Of a stretch of 64,000 bases of DNA, positions 1,639-48,609 are shown in pieces. This stretch comes from Mustelus asterias. Its lineage: Eukaryota. The stretch is taken from positions 4,774,001 through 4,838,000 of the forward strand of contig NC_135821.1 of the NCBI RefSeq assembly GCF_964213995.1. The letters are read 5' to 3'. Each line of letters begins with the position of its first letter. The first letter of the stretch is position 1. The position numbers were made by a program, and so were the translations under genes. Under the pieces are notes generated by a model that searched no databases, was not told the origin of the DNA, and saw only the letters and a list, made by a program, of their open reading frames with translations.

Positions 1639-1724
1639 TATTTATACCACTGGGACATCCTACATTCAAACTGGGAATGACATCACCAATGATGATTGAC
1701 AACCCCTGACAGCCAATCAGGAAT
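1639..1724 (-). promoter_or_regulatory. Ferritin A core promoter: TATA box, CRE-like TGACATCA, CCAAT boxes
   Basis: TATAAATA at 1639-1646 on the minus strand; module shared with genes B, C, D, F, G, H. Confidence 0.8.
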
Positions 1725-2053
1725 TCTTTCGATACCAATCAAGTAGCTTTTTCGGGTACCAACGTAATAAACGAACTCAAATTAACTTAGGGACAAAGTA
1801 AAAGGGGCGGCTCCCCAAAAGGAAGGGGGGAACAGCCCGAACCAAAATCAAAGTCGAAAGGAAACTTAAAACGTCAAACCAAAAGGTGATTATCGGGGTC
1901 GATAATCAGCCCCTGCGGCGCCCAGCGGTCGCGGAAGGCGTCAACCGCGCCCGTGGACACCGCATGCTCCCTCTCCAGAGACACCTGGCCGCGAATGTAG
2001 CCGCGGTAGAGGGGCAGACAGTCGGGATGGACGGCCCCGTCGATCGCCCGCTA
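1725..2053 (-). mobile_element. 5'-truncated Tx1 retrotransposon inserted in the ferritin A CCAAT box
   Basis: Near-identical to about 47680-48000; flanked by a 16-bp direct repeat ACAGCCAATCAGGAAT (1709-1724 and 2054-2069). Confidence 0.9.
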
Positions 2054-2235
2054 ACAGCCAATCAGGAATCAGCCATCAATTCAGGCACCAATTAACAAAG
2101 GGTGTTGCGGGGGGGAGGGTGTGGGAGCCAGAGCCAATCAGAGCTTTGGAATCCAGGCAGGTTTGGGAGATTCACCTCGATGATGTCACTGCTTCTGGGT
2201 TCCTCGACCATCTTCCAGCGTGAAAATGTCTCGTA

Positions 2236-7391: not shown

Positions 7392-7510
7392 AGAAAGTTC
7401 TAGAACTGCCCCTTTCTAACACAACTTGTATTTATACCACTGGGCCATCCTGCATTCAAACTGGGAATGACATCACCAATGATGATTGACAATCTTTGAC
7501 AACCAATCAA
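7392..7510 (-). promoter_or_regulatory. Ferritin B promoter/5' UTR: HSE-like triplet, TATA box, CCAAT
   Basis: AGAAAGTTCTAGAAC at 7392-7406; TATAAATA at 7429-7436 on the minus strand. Confidence 0.7.
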
Positions 7511-7868
7511 GTAGCTTTTTCGGCACCAATCAAGTAGCTTTTTCGGCACCAATCAAGTAAACGAACTCAAATTAACTTAGGGACAAAGTAAAAGGGGCGG
7601 CTCCCCAAAAGGAAGGGGGGAACAGCCCGAACCAAAATCAAAGTCGAAAGGAAACTTAAAACGTCAAACCAAAAGGTGATTATCGGGGTCGATAATACAC
7701 CCCAGCCCCTGCGGCGCCCAGCGGTCGCGGAAGGCGTCAACCGCGCCCGTGGACACCGCATGCTCCCTCTCCAGAGACACCTGGCCGCGAATGTAGCCGC
7801 GGTAGAGGGGCAGACAGTCGGGATGGACGGCCCCGTCGATCGCCCGCTGCCTGGACCAGGAGCAGGTT
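7502..7868 (-). mobile_element. 5'-truncated Tx1 retrotransposon inserted in the ferritin B CCAAT box
   Basis: Matches the 3' end of the 45508-48016 element; tail of 23-bp repeats ACCAATCAAGTAGCTTTTTCGGC; flanked by TTGACA(A/G)CCAATCA. Confidence 0.9.
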
Positions 7869-8009
7869 GACAGCCAATCAGGAATCTGCCATCAATCCAG
7901 GCACCAATTAACAAAGGGTGCAGGGGGAGGGGGTGAGATCCAGGGCCAATCAGAGCTTTGGAATCTAGGCTGGTTTGGAAGATGAGTCTCAATGATGATG
8001 TCTGAATGA

Positions 8010-16005: not shown

Positions 16006-16091
16006 TATTTATACCACTGGGACATCCTGCAGTCAAACTGGGAATGACATCACCAATGATGATTGACAATCCCTGACAGCCAATCAGGAAT
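16006..16091 (-). promoter_or_regulatory. Ferritin C core promoter (TATA, CRE-like, CCAAT)
   Basis: TATAAATA at 16006-16013 on the minus strand; shared promoter module. Confidence 0.8.
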
Positions 16092-16662
16092 TCCTTCGAC
16101 ACCAATCAAGTAGCTTTTTCGGCACCAATCAAGTAAACGAACTCAAATTAACTTGGGGACAAAGTAAAAGGGGCGGCTCCCCAAAAGGAAGGGGGGAACA
16201 GCCCGAACCAAAATCAAAGTCGAAAGGAAACTTAAAACGTCAAACCAAAAGGTGATTATCGGGGTCGATAATACACCCCAGCCCCTGCGGCGCCCAGCGG
16301 TCGCGGAAGGCGTCAACCGCGCCCGTGGACACCGCATGCTCCCTCTCCAGAGACACCTGGCCGCGAATGTAGCCGCGGTAGAGGGGCAGACAGTCGGGTC
16401 GGATGACCCCCTCGACCGCCCGCTGCCTGGACCCTGTAGGTGGCAAGCTTTGCCAGGCCCAGGAGCAGGTTCACAAGGAGCTCATCCTCCTTCCCCGCCC
16501 CCCCTCCGCACCGGTGCCTGTAGATCAGGAGCGTGGGGCTGAAGAGCAAACAAAACATCAATAAAAAGTTACTATGCTAATTAAAAAGGGAGTGCAGCCT
16601 TTGACATTCAACGTAGACATGATTCACAGGCTCTTCAAGATTACAAAAAGGGACCCAGAGTC
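16092..16662 (-). mobile_element. 5'-truncated, apparently chimeric Tx1 retrotransposon in the ferritin C CCAAT box
   Basis: Same 3' junction as in gene A (CAGCCAATCAGGAATTC.TTCGA.ACCAATCAAG); the distal part resembles the 58052-58722 subfamily (LAKLATYRVQ). Confidence 0.85.
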
Positions 16663-23417: not shown

Positions 23418-23553
23418 ACAGTAAGAAGTTTAACAACACCAGGTTAAAGTCCAACAGGTTTATTTGGTAGCAAAAGCCACACAAGCTTGTGTGGCTTTTG
23501 CTACCAAATAAACCTGTTGGACTTTAACCTGGTGTTGTTAAACTTCTTACTGT
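23418..23553. repeat. Perfect 136-bp palindrome made of two Penelope termini
   Basis: 68-bp arms with no spacer, centred on AAGCTT (23483-23488); arms match the Penelope end at about 35056-35126; direct repeat CACTCAATGGACA at 23408-23420 and 23592-23604. Confidence 0.9.
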
Positions 23554-31967: not shown

Positions 31968-33711
31968 TGATTATGCCAACGTGAGGGTAAAGTACATTAG
32001 AAAGGTACTTGCCCTACTAAAGCAGGATCTTGTTAATGACACCTGCAAGACAGTCTATACCCTAGGTGCCCACTGACTGCAGACGGCACCAGGTGTACTG
32101 ATGGATGCCTGCCACACACGCCCTCTGTAGAGGTCACCCAGGGATCCACAAGATTGTGAAAGAGAAGTAGGCAGTCAGAGTGACACCACTCCCCCAGCCC
32201 TCACCCCAACCCCATGAGCCTAAGCTGTCCTAGAATGAGAAATTGCTGATTCCGTCAGGACTGGCAGGTCCGTAGGAAGTTCCTTCGACTTTGACCGAAG
32301 AACATGATTGGTCATTTTTGCTTCCCATGTGCTGCAGTTTTGCACTTGCCTGCTCTAATCATCCAATCAGAATGTTCCCTGGTCCAAATGATCATATCCA
32401 CTGCATTCCATTCTTGATTGGTGCCCTCTAAGGAGCTTGTAGTTCTGATTGGGTACTGGGAGTGGTGTAGCATCAATTGGAATGTGAGTCTTGGTATTTA
32501 AGATGAGTTGGTCCCACTTGCATCAATGTCAGAGTCTAGTGAGTTAGAATGGCTTCCCAAGTGCAGTAGAACTACCACAAGGACTGTGAGGATGCTGTTA
32601 ACAAGCAGATCAACCTGGAGCTCTATTCCTCCTATGTTTACCTCTCCATGGTGAGCTTTGTTTTTTTTCAAGAAACTTAGTGTTTTTGAATAACCTGTTG
32701 GTCTGTATACAATGAATGCATTGGTTTTATAAAAGTTCTAATGTAGTGCAACTTATTTTATGGTCAGTAATAAACCTCTTTTGCAGTGATTATAACACCT
32801 GTATCATCTATAATAATCTTTAAGCTGTATGATTGTTTTCACCAGAGTCAGAACTATGACCCTGTTGACCTCTTGTTTCTAACATTGCCATTGAGTTAAA
32901 TATATTTGCACAATATTGTAATCATAGAATCCCTACTGTGCAGAAGGTGGCCATTTGGCCCATTTGAGTCTGCACTAACCACAGTCCCAGCCCTGTAACC
33001 CCATGTATCTACCCTGCTAGTCCCCCTGAAATTAAGGGGCAATTTAGCATAGCCAGTCCACGTAACCCGCATCTTTGGTCTGTGGGAGGAAACTCTCCCA
33101 GACATGGGGAGAACATACAAACTCCACAGTGGCCTGAACTGGGAATTTAACCCTGACTGAGGCAGCAGTGCTTGCCACTGTTGCCCTTGTAATTGGTAAC
33201 TGGTTTTACATGGCCAGCTTTCATTAAGCATCTGTAATGGGTTGATACAAAATTGATACAATGGTTGAAAGAGGACTGTCGATGCCAGGTATAAAAGAAA
33301 AAGTGTAAGCTAGAAGCAGGAGGAGGCCATTCGGCCCTTCAAGCCTGCTCCACCATTCATTTTGATCATGGCAGATCATTAAATTTAATATCCTAATCTT
33401 GACTAGCCCTGAGCTAAAGCTAATTGGGTTCTAGGAGATGGTGTCTCTGGTGTCCACTTTGCAGAAGGGCTTTGAGTATGATGGTGAGATATTCTCCTTG
33501 TGATACCAGATGTGAATTGCAGGCAGGTACTTGGGGCAAATAATCCCATTTTTAAAATGAGTGAGATAGGGGATTGTCAATAAATTTGTTCAAGGGCCTT
33601 GGAATATAAATTCCCTTTTTTTTAAAAAATTGAACAAGTGGACGCTTGCCTGATAGGAAAGAATCAGTGGGAGCTGCTTGAAGTAATGTAGGTCGTGGGG
33701 CTTGACTAGTT

Positions 33712-35053: not shown

Positions 35054-35990
35054 ACACAGTAAGAAGTTTAACAACACCAGGTTAAAGTCCAACAGGTTTA
35101 TTTGGTAGCAAAAGCCACACAAGCTTTCGAAGCTCTAAGCCCCTTCTTCAGGTGAGTGGGAATTCTGTTCACAAACAGAGCTTATAAAGACACAGACTCA
35201 ATTTACATGAATAATGGTTGGAATGCGAATACTTACAACTAATCCAGTCTTTAAGAAACAAAACAATGGGAGTGGAGAGCATCAAGACAGGCTAAAAAGA
35301 TGTGTATTGTCTCCAGACAAGACAGCCAGTGAAACTCTGTGGGAGTTACAAATAGTGTGCCATGAACCCAATATCCCGGTTGAGGCTGTCCTCGTGTGTG
35401 TGGTACTTGGCTATCAGTTTCTGCTCAGCGACTCTGTGCCGTCGTGTGTCGCGAAGGCCGCCTTGGAGAACGCTTACCCGAATATCAGAGGCCAAATGCC
35501 TGTGACCGCTGAAGTGCTCCCTAACAGGAAGAGAACAGTCCTGCCTGGTGATTGTCGAGTGGTGTTCATTCATCCATTGTTGCAGCGTCTGCATAGTTTC
35601 CCCAATGTACCATGCCTCGGACATCCTTTCTTGCAGTGTATCAGGTAGACAACGTTGGCCGAGTTGCAAGAGTATGTACTGTGTACCTGGTGGATGGTGT
35701 TCTCACGTGAGATGGTGGCATCTGTGTCGATCTGGCACGTCTTGCAGAGGTTGCTGTGGCAGGGTTGTGTGGTGTCATGGTCACTGTTCTCCTGAAGGCT
35801 GGGTAGTTTGCTGCGGACAATGGTCTGTTTGAGGTTGTGCGGTTGTTTGAAGGCAAGAAGTGGGGGTGTGGGGATGGCCTTGGCGAGATGTTCGTCTTCA
35901 ATGACATGTTGAAGGCTCCGGAGGAGATGCCGTAGCTTCTCTGCTCCGGGGAAGTACTGGACAACGAAGGGTACTCTGTCCACCATGTTC
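35054..35990 (-). mobile_element. Penelope-like retroelement, 3' part with GIY-YIG endonuclease
   Basis: ORFs 35570-36103 and 35346-35669: RVPFVVQYFPG...PLLAFKQP.NLK..IVRSKL...CKTC...CNSANVVYLIHC...WYIGET...L..RMNEH-like; one frameshift. Confidence 0.9.
35118..35154 (-). ncRNA. Minimal type I hammerhead ribozyme motif in the Penelope terminus
   Basis: Minus strand CAC-CTGAAGA-AGGGGCTTAGAGCTTC-GAAA-GCTT-GTG: CUGANGA and GAAA cores, helix I CAC/GTG, palindromic helix III. Confidence 0.7.
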
Positions 35991-43915: not shown

Positions 43916-46597
43916 ACTGATTGTGGGGGATGAGCTTTGTGTTCAAGTTTGTATAATTGAGATCTCTGGACCTGTGGTTTTAGAGCGATTGAGCCAGAGG
44001 TGCATTATGGGAATGAACAAACTAAATAAACATTTCATAATGGAGTGAAGCTTGGTTTTAATTATTTGCAGTCACCAATGGACCAGCTACGTTGACAGTC
44101 TAACTCCAAGATACCCTTTTTTTTTTGGAAGGCACCAGATAAATGCTTAATCGTTTGCATCATTTGAACACCAGTGCTAGATTCTCTCCTTGGGAGGAAT
44201 TGTCAGATCTGAGCCTTGCTGGCTGAATCCAGATTTGTTGATGTCCATTGTGTCTCTGCCTTTTGCACCAATGGCAGCTCAAATCATTCAGACCAGTAGC
44301 TGCTGTCAAATGAGTTGTTTTAAATCTTTGTCTGGGTGGATAGTTTCCACAGAATTATTAGTGAAATGCTTTGGAACTGAACCTGCCCACTTGTTGCCCT
44401 GCTAAGCCTTTTCAGTATAGTACTAGATAACAGCAATGGGGTCTGGGAGGTCTCTGCCTTCCTCATACTGAAGGGAAGTACAACTGGGCTTTGGTCAATA
44501 TTGCCTGAAATGTTAGACTTGCCTCAAGGGAGGGCAATATGGGGATTCCTGGAGTAAAAGTCTTCAAACTGTAGTTGATTGAATAGAGTCAATAAATATC
44601 ACAAACCTGTGACTTAAACTCCACACCATCATTTAATCTCATTGTGCATTCATACCAAATAAGAATCATCAATTGCTTTCTCCCAAGCCTAAAAATGACA
44701 GCATTCATTTTCAACTCAGTTGAGAATGTCAATAAGGGCAATGACATCAGATGTGGAGGATTATTTTTAACCAGTGATTTATGATTAGGAATGCGCTGTC
44801 TGAAAGGATGGTGGAAATACATTCAATAATAAATTGACTGACGTGGGAAATGGACACAGTGGTTATCACTGCTGCCTCACAACACCAAGGTCCCAGGTTC
44901 AATTCCAGCCTTGGGTTACTGTCTGTGGGGAATTTGCATGTTCTCGTGTTTGCGTGGGTTTCCTCCCACAGTCCAAAGATGTGTGGATTGGGCATGCTAA
45001 ATTAATCCTAGTGTCAGGGGATGAGCAGGGTAAATGGATGGGGTTATGGGAATAGGGCTGGGGTGGGATTGTGGTCGGTACAGACCTGATGGGCTGAATG
45101 GCCTCCTTCTGTACTGTAGGGATTATATGGATATAAATGTGTTGCTATGATCCAATCAGCTTTTCTTGTCACACGGGGAGGCTGAATCAAGGGGAATGAA
45201 TGACCTCATATGGTCTTCACTTGAAATTGCCAAGTTTTGGGTTTGACCTATCGATATAATAGAGCATCGACCATCTTGTCCTACATTTTAGGGCAGGTTA
45301 TCACTCGTTCAACCACTGCCCCTATCGCCAAAGGATCTACTTTAATGTCTGCAATGAGGAAATATAGGTGTCCAAAGGACAGGCTCTTGATGATCCATGC
45401 TTCAGATAAAATCTTTCCTCGACTCTCATAACAGACTTGAGATTTGGAGAAGGGGAAATATTGGACCCACAGCCCATAAATTTGCTTGGGGGGAGTTTAC
45501 CTCATTGAGGCCTGTCTGCTTACGCCGACGACGTGCTCCTCATGTTCACGGACCCGGCTGACCTGCGGAGGATGCGAGAATGCCAGGCGGTGTACTCCGC
45601 CGCGTCCTCCGCCAGGATCAACTGGGCCAAGTGCTCCGGACTCCTGGTCGGTCCGTGGGAGACGGACCCCCTTCCGGAGGAGCTCAGGCCTTTCACCTGG
45701 AGCAGGACCAACCTCCTCTACCTGGGGGTCCATCTCTGCCCAGCCGAGGAATCCTGGCCGGCGAACTGGCGGGAGTTGGAGCCCAAAGTCTCCGCCCGCC
45801 TGGGTCGCTGGACAGGACTGCTCCGAGTGCTGTCCTACAGGGCGCGCGTTCTCGTCATAAACCAGCTGGTCGCCTCCATGCTGTGGTACCGGCTGGTCAC
45901 TTTGGCCCCTCCCCCTGGCTTTGTCACCGATATGCAGAAAGCCCTCGTGCGGTTTTTCTGGGACAACCGACTGCACTGGGTCGCTGCCGAGGTGCTGCAT
46001 CTCCCGATTGAGGAGGGCGGACAAGGTCTGGTGTGCCTCCGCACGCAGGTGGCGACCTTCCGCCTCCAGACACTGCAGCGATACCTTTACGTCGAGCCTC
46101 CTCCACGATGGCGTGCGATGGCGACGTATTTTTTCCGCCAGTTGCATGGCCTCAATTACGACGTGCAGCTCCTGCACATCAACCTGGGGCGTATTCCGAC
46201 CTCCCTGCGGGAGTTGCCCGTCTTTTACCAGGACCTCCTCACGGTCTGGAACACTGTCGCCTCGCGACGCAGCTCTCCCCCGTCAGGAGTAGCGGCTCTC
46301 GTGCGAGAGCCGCTGCTCAGGAATCCGCACCTCCAGCCTTACGACTTCAGGTGGCTGGCGGAGAGGAGGGCCGTGGACGCCGGGGTGACCAGGATCGGGG
46401 ACGTGCTGGATGGCGGAGGAGCGGGCTGGATGAGCCCCGACGTGCTGGCTGAGCGCGCAGGGGTGGCCGTCTGGCGCGCGGCCAAAGCCATCCAAGACCT
46501 TAGGACAGTCGTGCTCGGCCCCGAGTGCACACGCGGTCTGGAGGCGGCACAGGCGTGCGGTGGGATCCCGCCCGAGCGTTCCCCTGCTCGGACGGAA

Positions 46598-47114
46598 TTA
46601 GTTTAACAACACCAGGTTAAAGTCCAACAGGTTTATTTGGTAGCAAAAGCCACACAAGCTTTCGGAGCTCTTAGCCCCTTCTTCAGGTGAGTGGGAATTC
46701 TGTTCACAAACAGAGCTTATAAAGACACAGACTCAAATTACATGAATAATGGTTGGAATGCGAATACTTACAACTAATCAAGTCTTTAAGAAACGAAACA
46801 ATGTGAGTGGAGAGAGCATCAAGACAGGCCAAAAAGATGTGTATTGTCTCCAGACAAGACAGCCAGTGAAACTCTGCAGGTCCACGCAACTGTGGGAGTT
46901 ACAAATAGTGTGACATGAACCCAATATCCCGGTTGAGGCTGTCCTCGTGTGTGCGGAGCTTGGCAATCAGTTTCTGCTCAGCGACTCTGCGTTGTTGTGT
47001 GTCGCGAAGGCCGCCTTGGAGAACGCTTACCCGAATATCAGAGGCCGAATGCCCGTGACCGCTGAAGTGCTTCCCAACAGGAAGAGAACAGTCTTGCCTG
47101 GTGATTGTCGAGGC
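46598..47114 (-). mobile_element. Penelope 3' fragment nested inside the Tx1 ORF2
   Basis: Near-identical to about 35065-35560; 7-bp direct repeat GACGGAA (46591-46597, 47115-47121). Confidence 0.9.
46653..46689 (-). ncRNA. Minimal type I hammerhead ribozyme motif in the Penelope terminus
   Basis: Minus strand CAC-CTGAAGA-AGGGGCTAAGAGCTCC-GAAA-GCTT-GTG; helix II GGGGC/GCTCC. Confidence 0.7.
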
Positions 47115-48609
47115 GACGGAAGTCCACATTGGCCCGAAGCCTAGACCTCCCCCCCCCAGGTCAGGTGCCCCACTGCGTGTGCCGCCTCGCGGAAATGCCC
47201 TCCATGCCCTTTTCCACCGCGCGGAGGCGTTTCCTGTACGGGCTGCTGCTGCACACCTTTCACTACCGCGTCCTCGCCCGTCGCCCGGATACACCATGGC
47301 GGGCCTTGTTGCCGCTGGGCGGCGGAGGTCCCCAGTGGAGGTCCCTCTACGGAGGGATCTCCCCCAATTATCTCGGGGACCTGGGGTGGAGGGTGCTGCA
47401 CGCAGCAGTGCCGTACAACCGTAGGTTTTTCCGGTACACGGGCTCCCGAGACTGCCCTTTCTGTGGCCTTGTGGAGTCCGTGGACCATGTCTACGTTCTG
47501 TGTTTTAGGCTGCACACCCTTTTTGGTTTCCTCAAACACCTTTTACTGATGTTTTGTTTGCACTTCAGTCCCACGCTCCTGATCTACGGGCACCTGGTGC
47601 GGAGAGGGGCGGGTCGGGATGCCGACCTCCTCGTGAACCTGCTCCTGGGCCTGGCGAGACGCGCCATCAATAGGTCCAGGCAGCGGGCGATCGACGGGGC
47701 CGTCCATCCCGACTGTCTGCCCCTCTGCCGCGGCTACATTCGCGGCCAGGTGTCTCTGGAGAGGGAGCATGCGGTGTCCACGGGCGCGGTTGACGCCTTC
47801 CGCGACCGCTGGGCGCCGCAGGGGCTGGGGTGTATTATCGACCCCGATAATCACCTTTTGGTTTGACGTTTTAAGTTTCCTTTCGACTTTGATTTTGGTT
47901 CGGGCTGTTCCCCCCTTCCTTTTGGGGAGCTGCCCCTTTTACTTTGTCCCTAAGTTCATTTGAGTTTGTTTACTTGATTGGTGTCGAAAGAAATACTTGA
48001 TTGGTGTGAAAAGAAATACCTCATTGGAACATTAGTGCTCAGTTCCACTGATTCACTTTCATTTCTCCCCCAACTTGTTCAGGTTTTTTTTATTCATTCA
48101 TGGGACATGGGCGTCGCTGGCTACGCCAGCATTTATTGCCCATCCCTAGTTCCCCTTGAGAAGGTGGTGGTGAGCTGCCTTCTTGAATCGCTGCACTCCA
48201 TGTGCTGTGAGTTGACCCACAATGCCATTAGGGAGGGAATTCCAGGATTTTGACCCAGCGACTGCGAAGGAACGGTCGATATATTTCCAACTCAGGATGA
48301 TGAGTGGCTTGGAGATTTGGTTTGTAGATTCCCTGCGGATTATCTAGTGCAGGTTTGGTGCCTTCAACTGCTGTGGTCAGTGTCACAGATAGTTCTGGAT
48401 GTGACAAAAGATGCATCAATTCTCCAAGAGATGGGGCAACATCGACACAGTTGTGTTCAACACCATCCACACGGCTCAATTTCCATTTGCAAACTCATTA
48501 AACTGATATTATTGAGGCTAGAATTTGGAGAATAGATGCCATCCGCTTGAGGAAAGTCAAAGAAAGCAACGTTAATTGTAGCAACAACAAGGTTCCATTA
48601 AAAAATAGG

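Follow-up and report, generated by a model that had tools for sequence, protein, structure and literature searches.

The interval 45511-48016 of the window (the whole stretch of 64,000 nucleotides analysed here) is a 5'-truncated LINE of the Tx1 clade, inserted in single-copy DNA and bounded by an exact target-site duplication (TSD) of 10 bp. It is an insertion separate from the three Tx1 copies present in ferritin promoters of the window, with its own TSD, unique flanks and a far greater length; the earlier note had rightly placed an independent insertion outside these promoters. We consider it somewhat probable that this copy belongs to a Tx1 preferring the sequence TWCCTSATTGG and carrying a target-like tail that helps prime reverse transcription. 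Taken alone, the copy is an ordinary dead LINE fragment. Yet, as the single insertion found outside the ferritin array, it provides the only non-circular hint for such a preference. With two to four events behind it, a tail-matched 11-bp target is thereby raised from what might be an artefact of one gene array to a hypothesis open to testing.

Anatomy of the Tx1 copy and its nested insert

The three 1-kb bins covering 45001-48000 have a GC content of 0.54-0.60 versus 0.37-0.51 in the 61 other bins, and the segment keeps two frames free of stops, 365 aa (45509-46606) and 253 aa (47105-47866) long, in line with the GC-rich Tx1 segment with long open frames first described. These frames give weak matches to RVT_1 and zf-RVT, below the Pfam cut-offs. 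The features of the copy are given below; outside the window, comparison was made with contigs of four public runs (X1, X3, X19 and X21).

45498..45507, + strand: 5' copy of the TSD, 10 bp, TACCTCATTG, spanned by a 440-nt X19 contig with zero differences
45508..45510, + strand: three extra bases, AGG, at the 5' junction; the family sequence departs at 45511 (X3)
45511..46599, + strand: first piece of Tx1 ORF2, end of the RT domain from LSAYADD on (frame, Pfam, similarity to medaka TX1)
46591..46599, + strand: left 9-bp duplication of the nested insertion, GACGGAATT (sequence comparison)
46600..47114, - strand: nested high-copy repeat, presumably Penelope-like, interrupting ORF2 (92% to 35065-35559)
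47115..47123, + strand: right duplication of the nested insertion, GACGGAAGT, one mismatch (sequence comparison)
47124..47866, + strand: second piece of Tx1 ORF2, zinc-finger region and stop codon (frame, Pfam)
47867..47970, + strand: pyrimidine-rich 3' UTR (sequence)
47971..48016, + strand: tail of two 23-nt units (47971 and 47994), each beginning TACTTGATTGG (word matches)
48017..48027, + strand: 3' copy of the TSD plus G, together TACCTCATTGG, one unit length behind the last tail unit

The 5' break lies at 45511, 10 nt ahead of the Y of YADD, so that the truncation falls just before this motif, as had been claimed, and YADD itself is retained; in run X3, the family sequence diverges upstream of 45511, among the loose ends listed. 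The AGG at the 5' junction may be untemplated or may stem from a short skip that began 6 nt further up the element. Although a Tx1 segment of about 2 kb had been correctly recognised, it is not uninterrupted: 515 bp of the 2,530-bp interval are a nested repeat (46600-47114) with its own 9-bp duplication, and a one-base frameshift lies between the ORF2 pieces, near a C-run at ~47140-47157 where X1 has 24 letters versus 25 in the window. The copy is dead because the insert and the frameshift interrupt ORF2. Family copies free of the insert appear as a joint between 46599 and 47149 in at least three of the four runs (X19, X21 and X1, among the joints listed).

From its motifs, we take the nested repeat to be presumably Penelope-like; Pfam, Rfam and PDB returned zero match confirming this label. 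A YIGET motif in a longer sister copy of the repeat presumably reflects a GIY-YIG-like resemblance, and a core at 46655-46690, on the minus strand of the repeat, is in our opinion hammerhead-like, with no match in Rfam. Two inverted 62-bp copies of the end of this repeat, both matching 46600-46661 letter for letter, lie elsewhere in the window at 23427-23544. In folding, the 3' UTR and tail of the Tx1 copy surpass shuffled sequences only modestly (z -2.4, 5/200), a result that was set aside, and the region 44700-48400 gave zero credible Rfam match.

Sequence similarity would assign the element to the Tx1 clade, since ORF2 is closer to a TX1-named protein than to L1: its first piece is 48% identical over 191 aa to medaka "transposon TX1 149 kDa protein" (E 3e-51, pairwise, for this one named reference), and the similarity of ORF2 to human L1 ORF2p is weak (E 2e-6 to 1e-5). 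The closest protein relatives are found in sharks, a ray, turtles and sturgeon, which makes a cartilaginous fish the likely host. The search for a full-length element suggested earlier succeeded for relatives, as all four scanned proteins of ~1,290-1,300 aa (35-37% identity) carry Exo_endo_phos and RVT_1, but yielded no full-length copy of the shark family; the truncated copy itself is without the APE domain and ORF1. Turtle relatives (P0012-P0015, P0001-P0003) are 49-67% identical to the ORF2 piece versus 35-41% for teleost ones, a pattern suggestive of a Tx1 lineage in common or of horizontal transfer; the turtle gene models P0011 and P0015, which hold the YADD region many times over, were read as prediction artefacts. 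Viral contigs and prokaryote genomes contained zero relatives of the Tx1 copy. Metagenome contigs, scanned for the tail, contained a single locus with a 24-nt match, which shows no further similarity and was attributed to chance.

Target-site duplication and age of the insertion

The window contains the 10-mer TACCTCATTG at 45498 and 48017 and at no other position, and its 3' copy is followed by G, which bears out the flanking duplication described from the letters. The 5' truncation, the intact 3' end and this TSD form the signature of target-primed reverse transcription (TPRT). Both flanks of the copy are single copy within the window, and the 440-nt X19 contig covers 45101-45540 with no difference and a depth of 19.9, like single-copy flanks. 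An assembly artefact at the 5' junction was ruled out, as this error-free contig spans it, and the single-copy depth of the 5' flank together with the uniqueness of the flanks in the window indicates that the target is not a U2 gene, a microsatellite or a DNA transposon. Run X1 stems from a different organism, ~90% identical in the flank. One of its contigs, of 226 nt, matches 45375-45497 and then runs on for 100 letters without placement among the matches listed; because joints are given at their leftmost position, an empty allele would break exactly at 45497. This is a strong hint that suggests an empty allele in the species of X1, the joint itself lying outside the 15 of 1,092 joints listed.

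These junctions bear on a reading without any real preference, in which the tail derives from read-through at one old promoter insertion, itself passed on from paralogue to paralogue, and the match at the present site is coincidental or the 3' 11-mer a decayed third tail unit. The tiny sample, a motif defined afterwards, the mosaic paralogues and the negative result at two of the three old copies all speak for it. However, the same 10-mer stands at the 5' junction and is therefore flank, not tail, on which ground the 3' 11-mer as a mere tail unit was ruled out; the contig of the other species leaves the window exactly at 45497; and coincidence would be an event of less than 1 in 1,000. A random 34-nt stretch shares a word of at least 10 letters with the 3' junction zone in 55 of 20,000 draws, self-hits counted. 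We hold this reading to be very improbable.

As regards age, the flanks differ at 12/123 positions in X1 and at 20/208 and 15/346 in X3, and the Tx1 insertion is therefore much younger than those species splits. Within the 1,936 Tx1 bases, another letter is present in at least 98% of the X19 depth at 10 or more sites and in at least 80% of this depth at 18 or more, so that near-private changes amount to 0.5-0.9%, a lower bound taken from the matches listed ahead of the 3' flank. Five of the 18 sites at the 80% level are CpG-decay-like, and some near-private changes may originate from a rare source copy. At the rate given for the epaulette shark in the accessible part of PMC10587355 (7e-10 per base per generation), which may not transfer, 0.5% would correspond to millions of generations. 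The recent activity proposed earlier holds as relative youth, with 4-5 differences from the promoter copies in 256 bp, but the near-private changes and the nested insert with its mismatched TSD go the other way, and activity as such is not demonstrable; the promoter copies may be younger still. Summed contig depth suggests thousands of family copies, as a rough indication and not a true copy number.

Target word, tail unit and the ferritin promoters

The tail unit TACTTGATTGG, the target TACCTCATTGG and the promoter box TTCCTGATTGG match one another pairwise at 9 of 11 letters. The target starts exactly 23 nt behind the last tail unit, the corresponding spacing being 22 nt at two promoter copies, and the word is cut by the junction at one and the same letter here and at two promoter copies, within one ambiguous A. 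Outside the Tx1 copies, a match of at least 9/11 to the tail unit is found at 18 of 117,498 positions and ATTGG alone at 173 of 117,510; with five registers allowed, the chance is ~0.0008 for the 9/11 match and 0.007 for ATTGG alone. The likeness gathered in the common word TWCCTSATTGG lies mostly 5' of ATTGG, and the target and the promoter box share a C where the tail has T. The relaxed CCAAT-like target put forward in the earlier note survives as an ATTGG target beyond chance, in the form of an 11-mer lying mostly 5' of ATTGG in the tail register, but 'CCAAT-like' overstates the tie to the transcription-factor box, as the site departs from the promoter box 3' of ATTGG. The common word has eight exact matches in the window versus 0.35 expected, seven of them ferritin boxes; because it was derived from these very sites, this count is a description and not a test.

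Bare ATTGG was rejected as the target, as 178 such sites lie outside Tx1 bodies, five of which are Tx1 junction copies and the others (~170) empty. A SINE-core box pattern is present at 16 sites (~14 true SINE boxes by eye), 0 of them with Tx1. The 5 of 178 ATTGG sites at Tx1 ends and the 0 of ~14 SINE boxes filled imply that the context 5' of ATTGG matters. The tail RNA unit UACUUGAUUGG would form nine Watson-Crick pairs, one U-G wobble and one mismatch with the target at both kinds of site; with an RNA-RNA duplex as stand-in, the energies are -9.7 and -11.6 kcal/mol, and values of -9 or below occur in 0.15% of 20,000 random 11-mers of the window.

The setting is repeat-rich vertebrate DNA with eight ferritin first exons in the window, and the other Tx1 copies are distributed as follows.

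1709..2069, - strand: sister Tx1 in a ferritin promoter, 16-bp duplication ATTCCTGATTGGCTGT (sequence comparison)
7490..7884, - strand: sister Tx1 in a ferritin promoter, three units resembling the tail, clean duplication absent (sequence comparison)
16067..16652, - strand: sister Tx1 in a ferritin promoter, chimeric, with its 5' part old and its 3' part young (divergence step)
39717: older Tx1 copy, apparent 8-bp duplication GATAATTG, ATTG in the same register
828-1042 (844): older short Tx1 copy in a ferritin intron, no duplication, ATTG 13 nt off
58057: older Tx1 copy, flank broken by a SINE, no ATTG
1580, 7371, 15947 and 28657, - strand: ferritin first exons (window scan)
32549, 41096, 53071 and 59001, + strand: ferritin first exons (window scan)

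Seven promoters have the box, and it is filled in three of them, always at the same one of four ATTGG boxes. The ferritin units combine types of 5' UTR, intron SINEs and the presence of Tx1 in a mosaic fashion, which suggests gene conversion. An in-frame stop interrupts the exon copy at 32549, whose promoter is also of another kind, and the 15947 unit, in whose 3.5 kb of downstream sequence ferritin exons 2-4 have no match, is possibly an exon-1-only copy.

Among themselves, the promoter copies show 0-1 differences over 256 body bases, apart from a 6-nt deletion in one of them, their young sequence begins within ~40 nt of one another, and they sit in three neighbouring, mosaic paralogues; on these grounds and because one is a chimera, three proven events were rejected. 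Separate events are favoured by their 5' junctions, which are not the same, and by the 3' junction of one copy, which departs from that of the others. The three copies may represent one to three events, leaving only two to four independent young insertions. The chimera (16067-16652) differs from the 45511-48016 copy at 61 positions in 255 nt and then at 5 in 261 nt; the old 5' junction of this chimera follows immediately upon a damaged distal ATTGG box, and the promoter has lost ~70 bp, which may reflect an older insertion at the distal box. At 7490-7513, the last tail-like 24-mer is 19/24 identical to the empty promoter and resembles the tail end of the older subfamily, through either RNA-templated replacement of the target or later homogenisation.

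The three older family copies are 78-80% identical, and their tails are without ATTGG; the 828-1042 copy has an expanded C-run, and paralogues supply its empty site. The occurrence of ATTG in other independent insertions, anticipated earlier, applies to the two to four young events, but two of the three older copies are without in-register ATTG and count against a family-wide rule. The full word is present in 4/4 young and 0/3 old copies, the window being no genome sample and the young copies two to four independent events. This pattern agrees with a switch of target in the young subfamily as well as with a tail-led choice.

According to the scheme that we favour, a high-copy shark Tx1 would insert by TPRT, its young subfamily preferring TWCCTSATTGG. 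An APE endonuclease would nick the bottom strand at the start of the word, and the freed primer would pair with the tail unit of the RNA, which would fix the register and, by favouring repeated starts, keep the tail as two to three tandem units. A second nick of variable position would leave the duplications visible at the junctions, 10 bp long at the present site and 16 bp long at one of the promoter copies. As the sequence shows, the nested repeat, presumably Penelope-like, was inserted later, and a frameshift arose. The ferritin promoter box would have been filled for the word that it contains, not for being a promoter.

A loose endonuclease combined with primer-tail pairing that picks the nicks, as in L2, CR1 and RTE, would make the ATTGG target a by-product. 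The exact register with the tail and the duplex energies above are consistent with it, as are the older copies, whose ATTGG-less tails go mostly with targets lacking ATTGG, the promoter copy ending in the tail-like 24-mer, and the high copy number. On the other hand, the C common to both targets is absent from the tail (wobble pairing being possible), the overlaps reported in the available text of PMC6007223 are of one to several bases and not 9/11, and the targets treated in the accessible part of PMC4494074 are, in the Tx1 clade, often set by the endonuclease. We judge pairing alone unlikely, although it deserves some weight. Endonuclease specificity and RNA pairing are inseparable in the present data, and thousands of copies seem many for an 11-bp target.

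With three of the four young window copies lying in ferritin promoters and a tail unit that resembles the promoter box beyond ATTGG (TGTC), unlike the 45498 site, true promoter targeting was also weighed, the element being drawn to inverted CCAAT boxes by open chromatin or NF-Y tethering and the 45511-48016 copy being off-target. However, the three promoter copies are possibly one event spread by conversion, and the other three ATTGG boxes of each promoter were never filled. Moreover, the site ATTGGAAC, by the NF-Y consensus, is presumably a poor NF-Y or CCAAT box, and comparison within the window shows no promoter homology at the insertion site (45498-48027). The letters 3' of ATTGG are AAC at 48017-48027 versus CTG at the promoter box; together with the poor NF-Y match, this points to a DNA word and not to promoter function, and targeting of promoters as such appears highly unlikely.

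A broader reading, which we find doubtful, is that a shark Tx1 lineage adopted as its target the inverted CCAAT box found in RNA polymerase II promoters, its tail of two or three box-like units both priming and handing spare ATTGG boxes to the promoter, with the proximal promoter left intact. If true, the element would be a retrotransposon that has a transcription-factor site of protein-coding genes as its target. Independently of this broader reading, a short promoter-shared target mirrored in a 23-nt tail would constitute a new class of Tx1 target. It would also offer a clean system to separate endonuclease from RNA-DNA pairing in the site choice of LINEs.

Comparison with known Tx1 and other LINE systems

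The general scheme of TPRT is that outlined in the accessible part of PMC2881922. The targets listed for the Tx1 clade in the available text of PMC4494074 comprise U2, U5 and 5S genes, microsatellites, satellites, DNA transposons and LTR elements; the same text takes more than 20% of flanks of one type as the mark of a target-specific family. As far as this text and that of PMC4640811 go, preference set by the endonuclease is common in the clade, and it carries a higher prior there than tail pairing, a process described at initiation for other LINE clades in the accessible part of PMC6007223. A literature search covering few subscription journals returned no published report of a CCAAT-type target for Tx1 or another non-LTR element, and Repbase may hold the family.

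Tx1L of Xenopus, Keno, Kibi/Koshi and the crocodilian Tx1-Mar and Tx1-9_AMi, as presented in the part of PMC4494074 at hand, are like the shark copy in ORF2 similarity, 5' truncation, TSD and apparent target preference, and full-length relatives have APE, RT and zf-RVT. In contrast to the elements covered there, the shark copy has as its target a short word found in single-copy DNA and in the promoters of a protein-coding gene array, and its tail is a 23-nt target-like repeat. According to the accessible sections of PMC6007223, L2, CR1 and RTE share with it a tandem repeat at the 3' end, the unit of which agrees with the first bases of the TSD, a likeness interpreted as pairing when reverse transcription begins, but their units are of microsatellite size and overlap the target by one to several bases, whereas the shark unit measures 23 nt and matches at 9/11. 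R1Bm, R2Ol and the I factor, in the same sections, likewise have a target-like RNA 3' end whose pairing aids priming; R1 and R2 hit rDNA precisely, whereas the shark Tx1, a member of another clade, tolerates mismatches.
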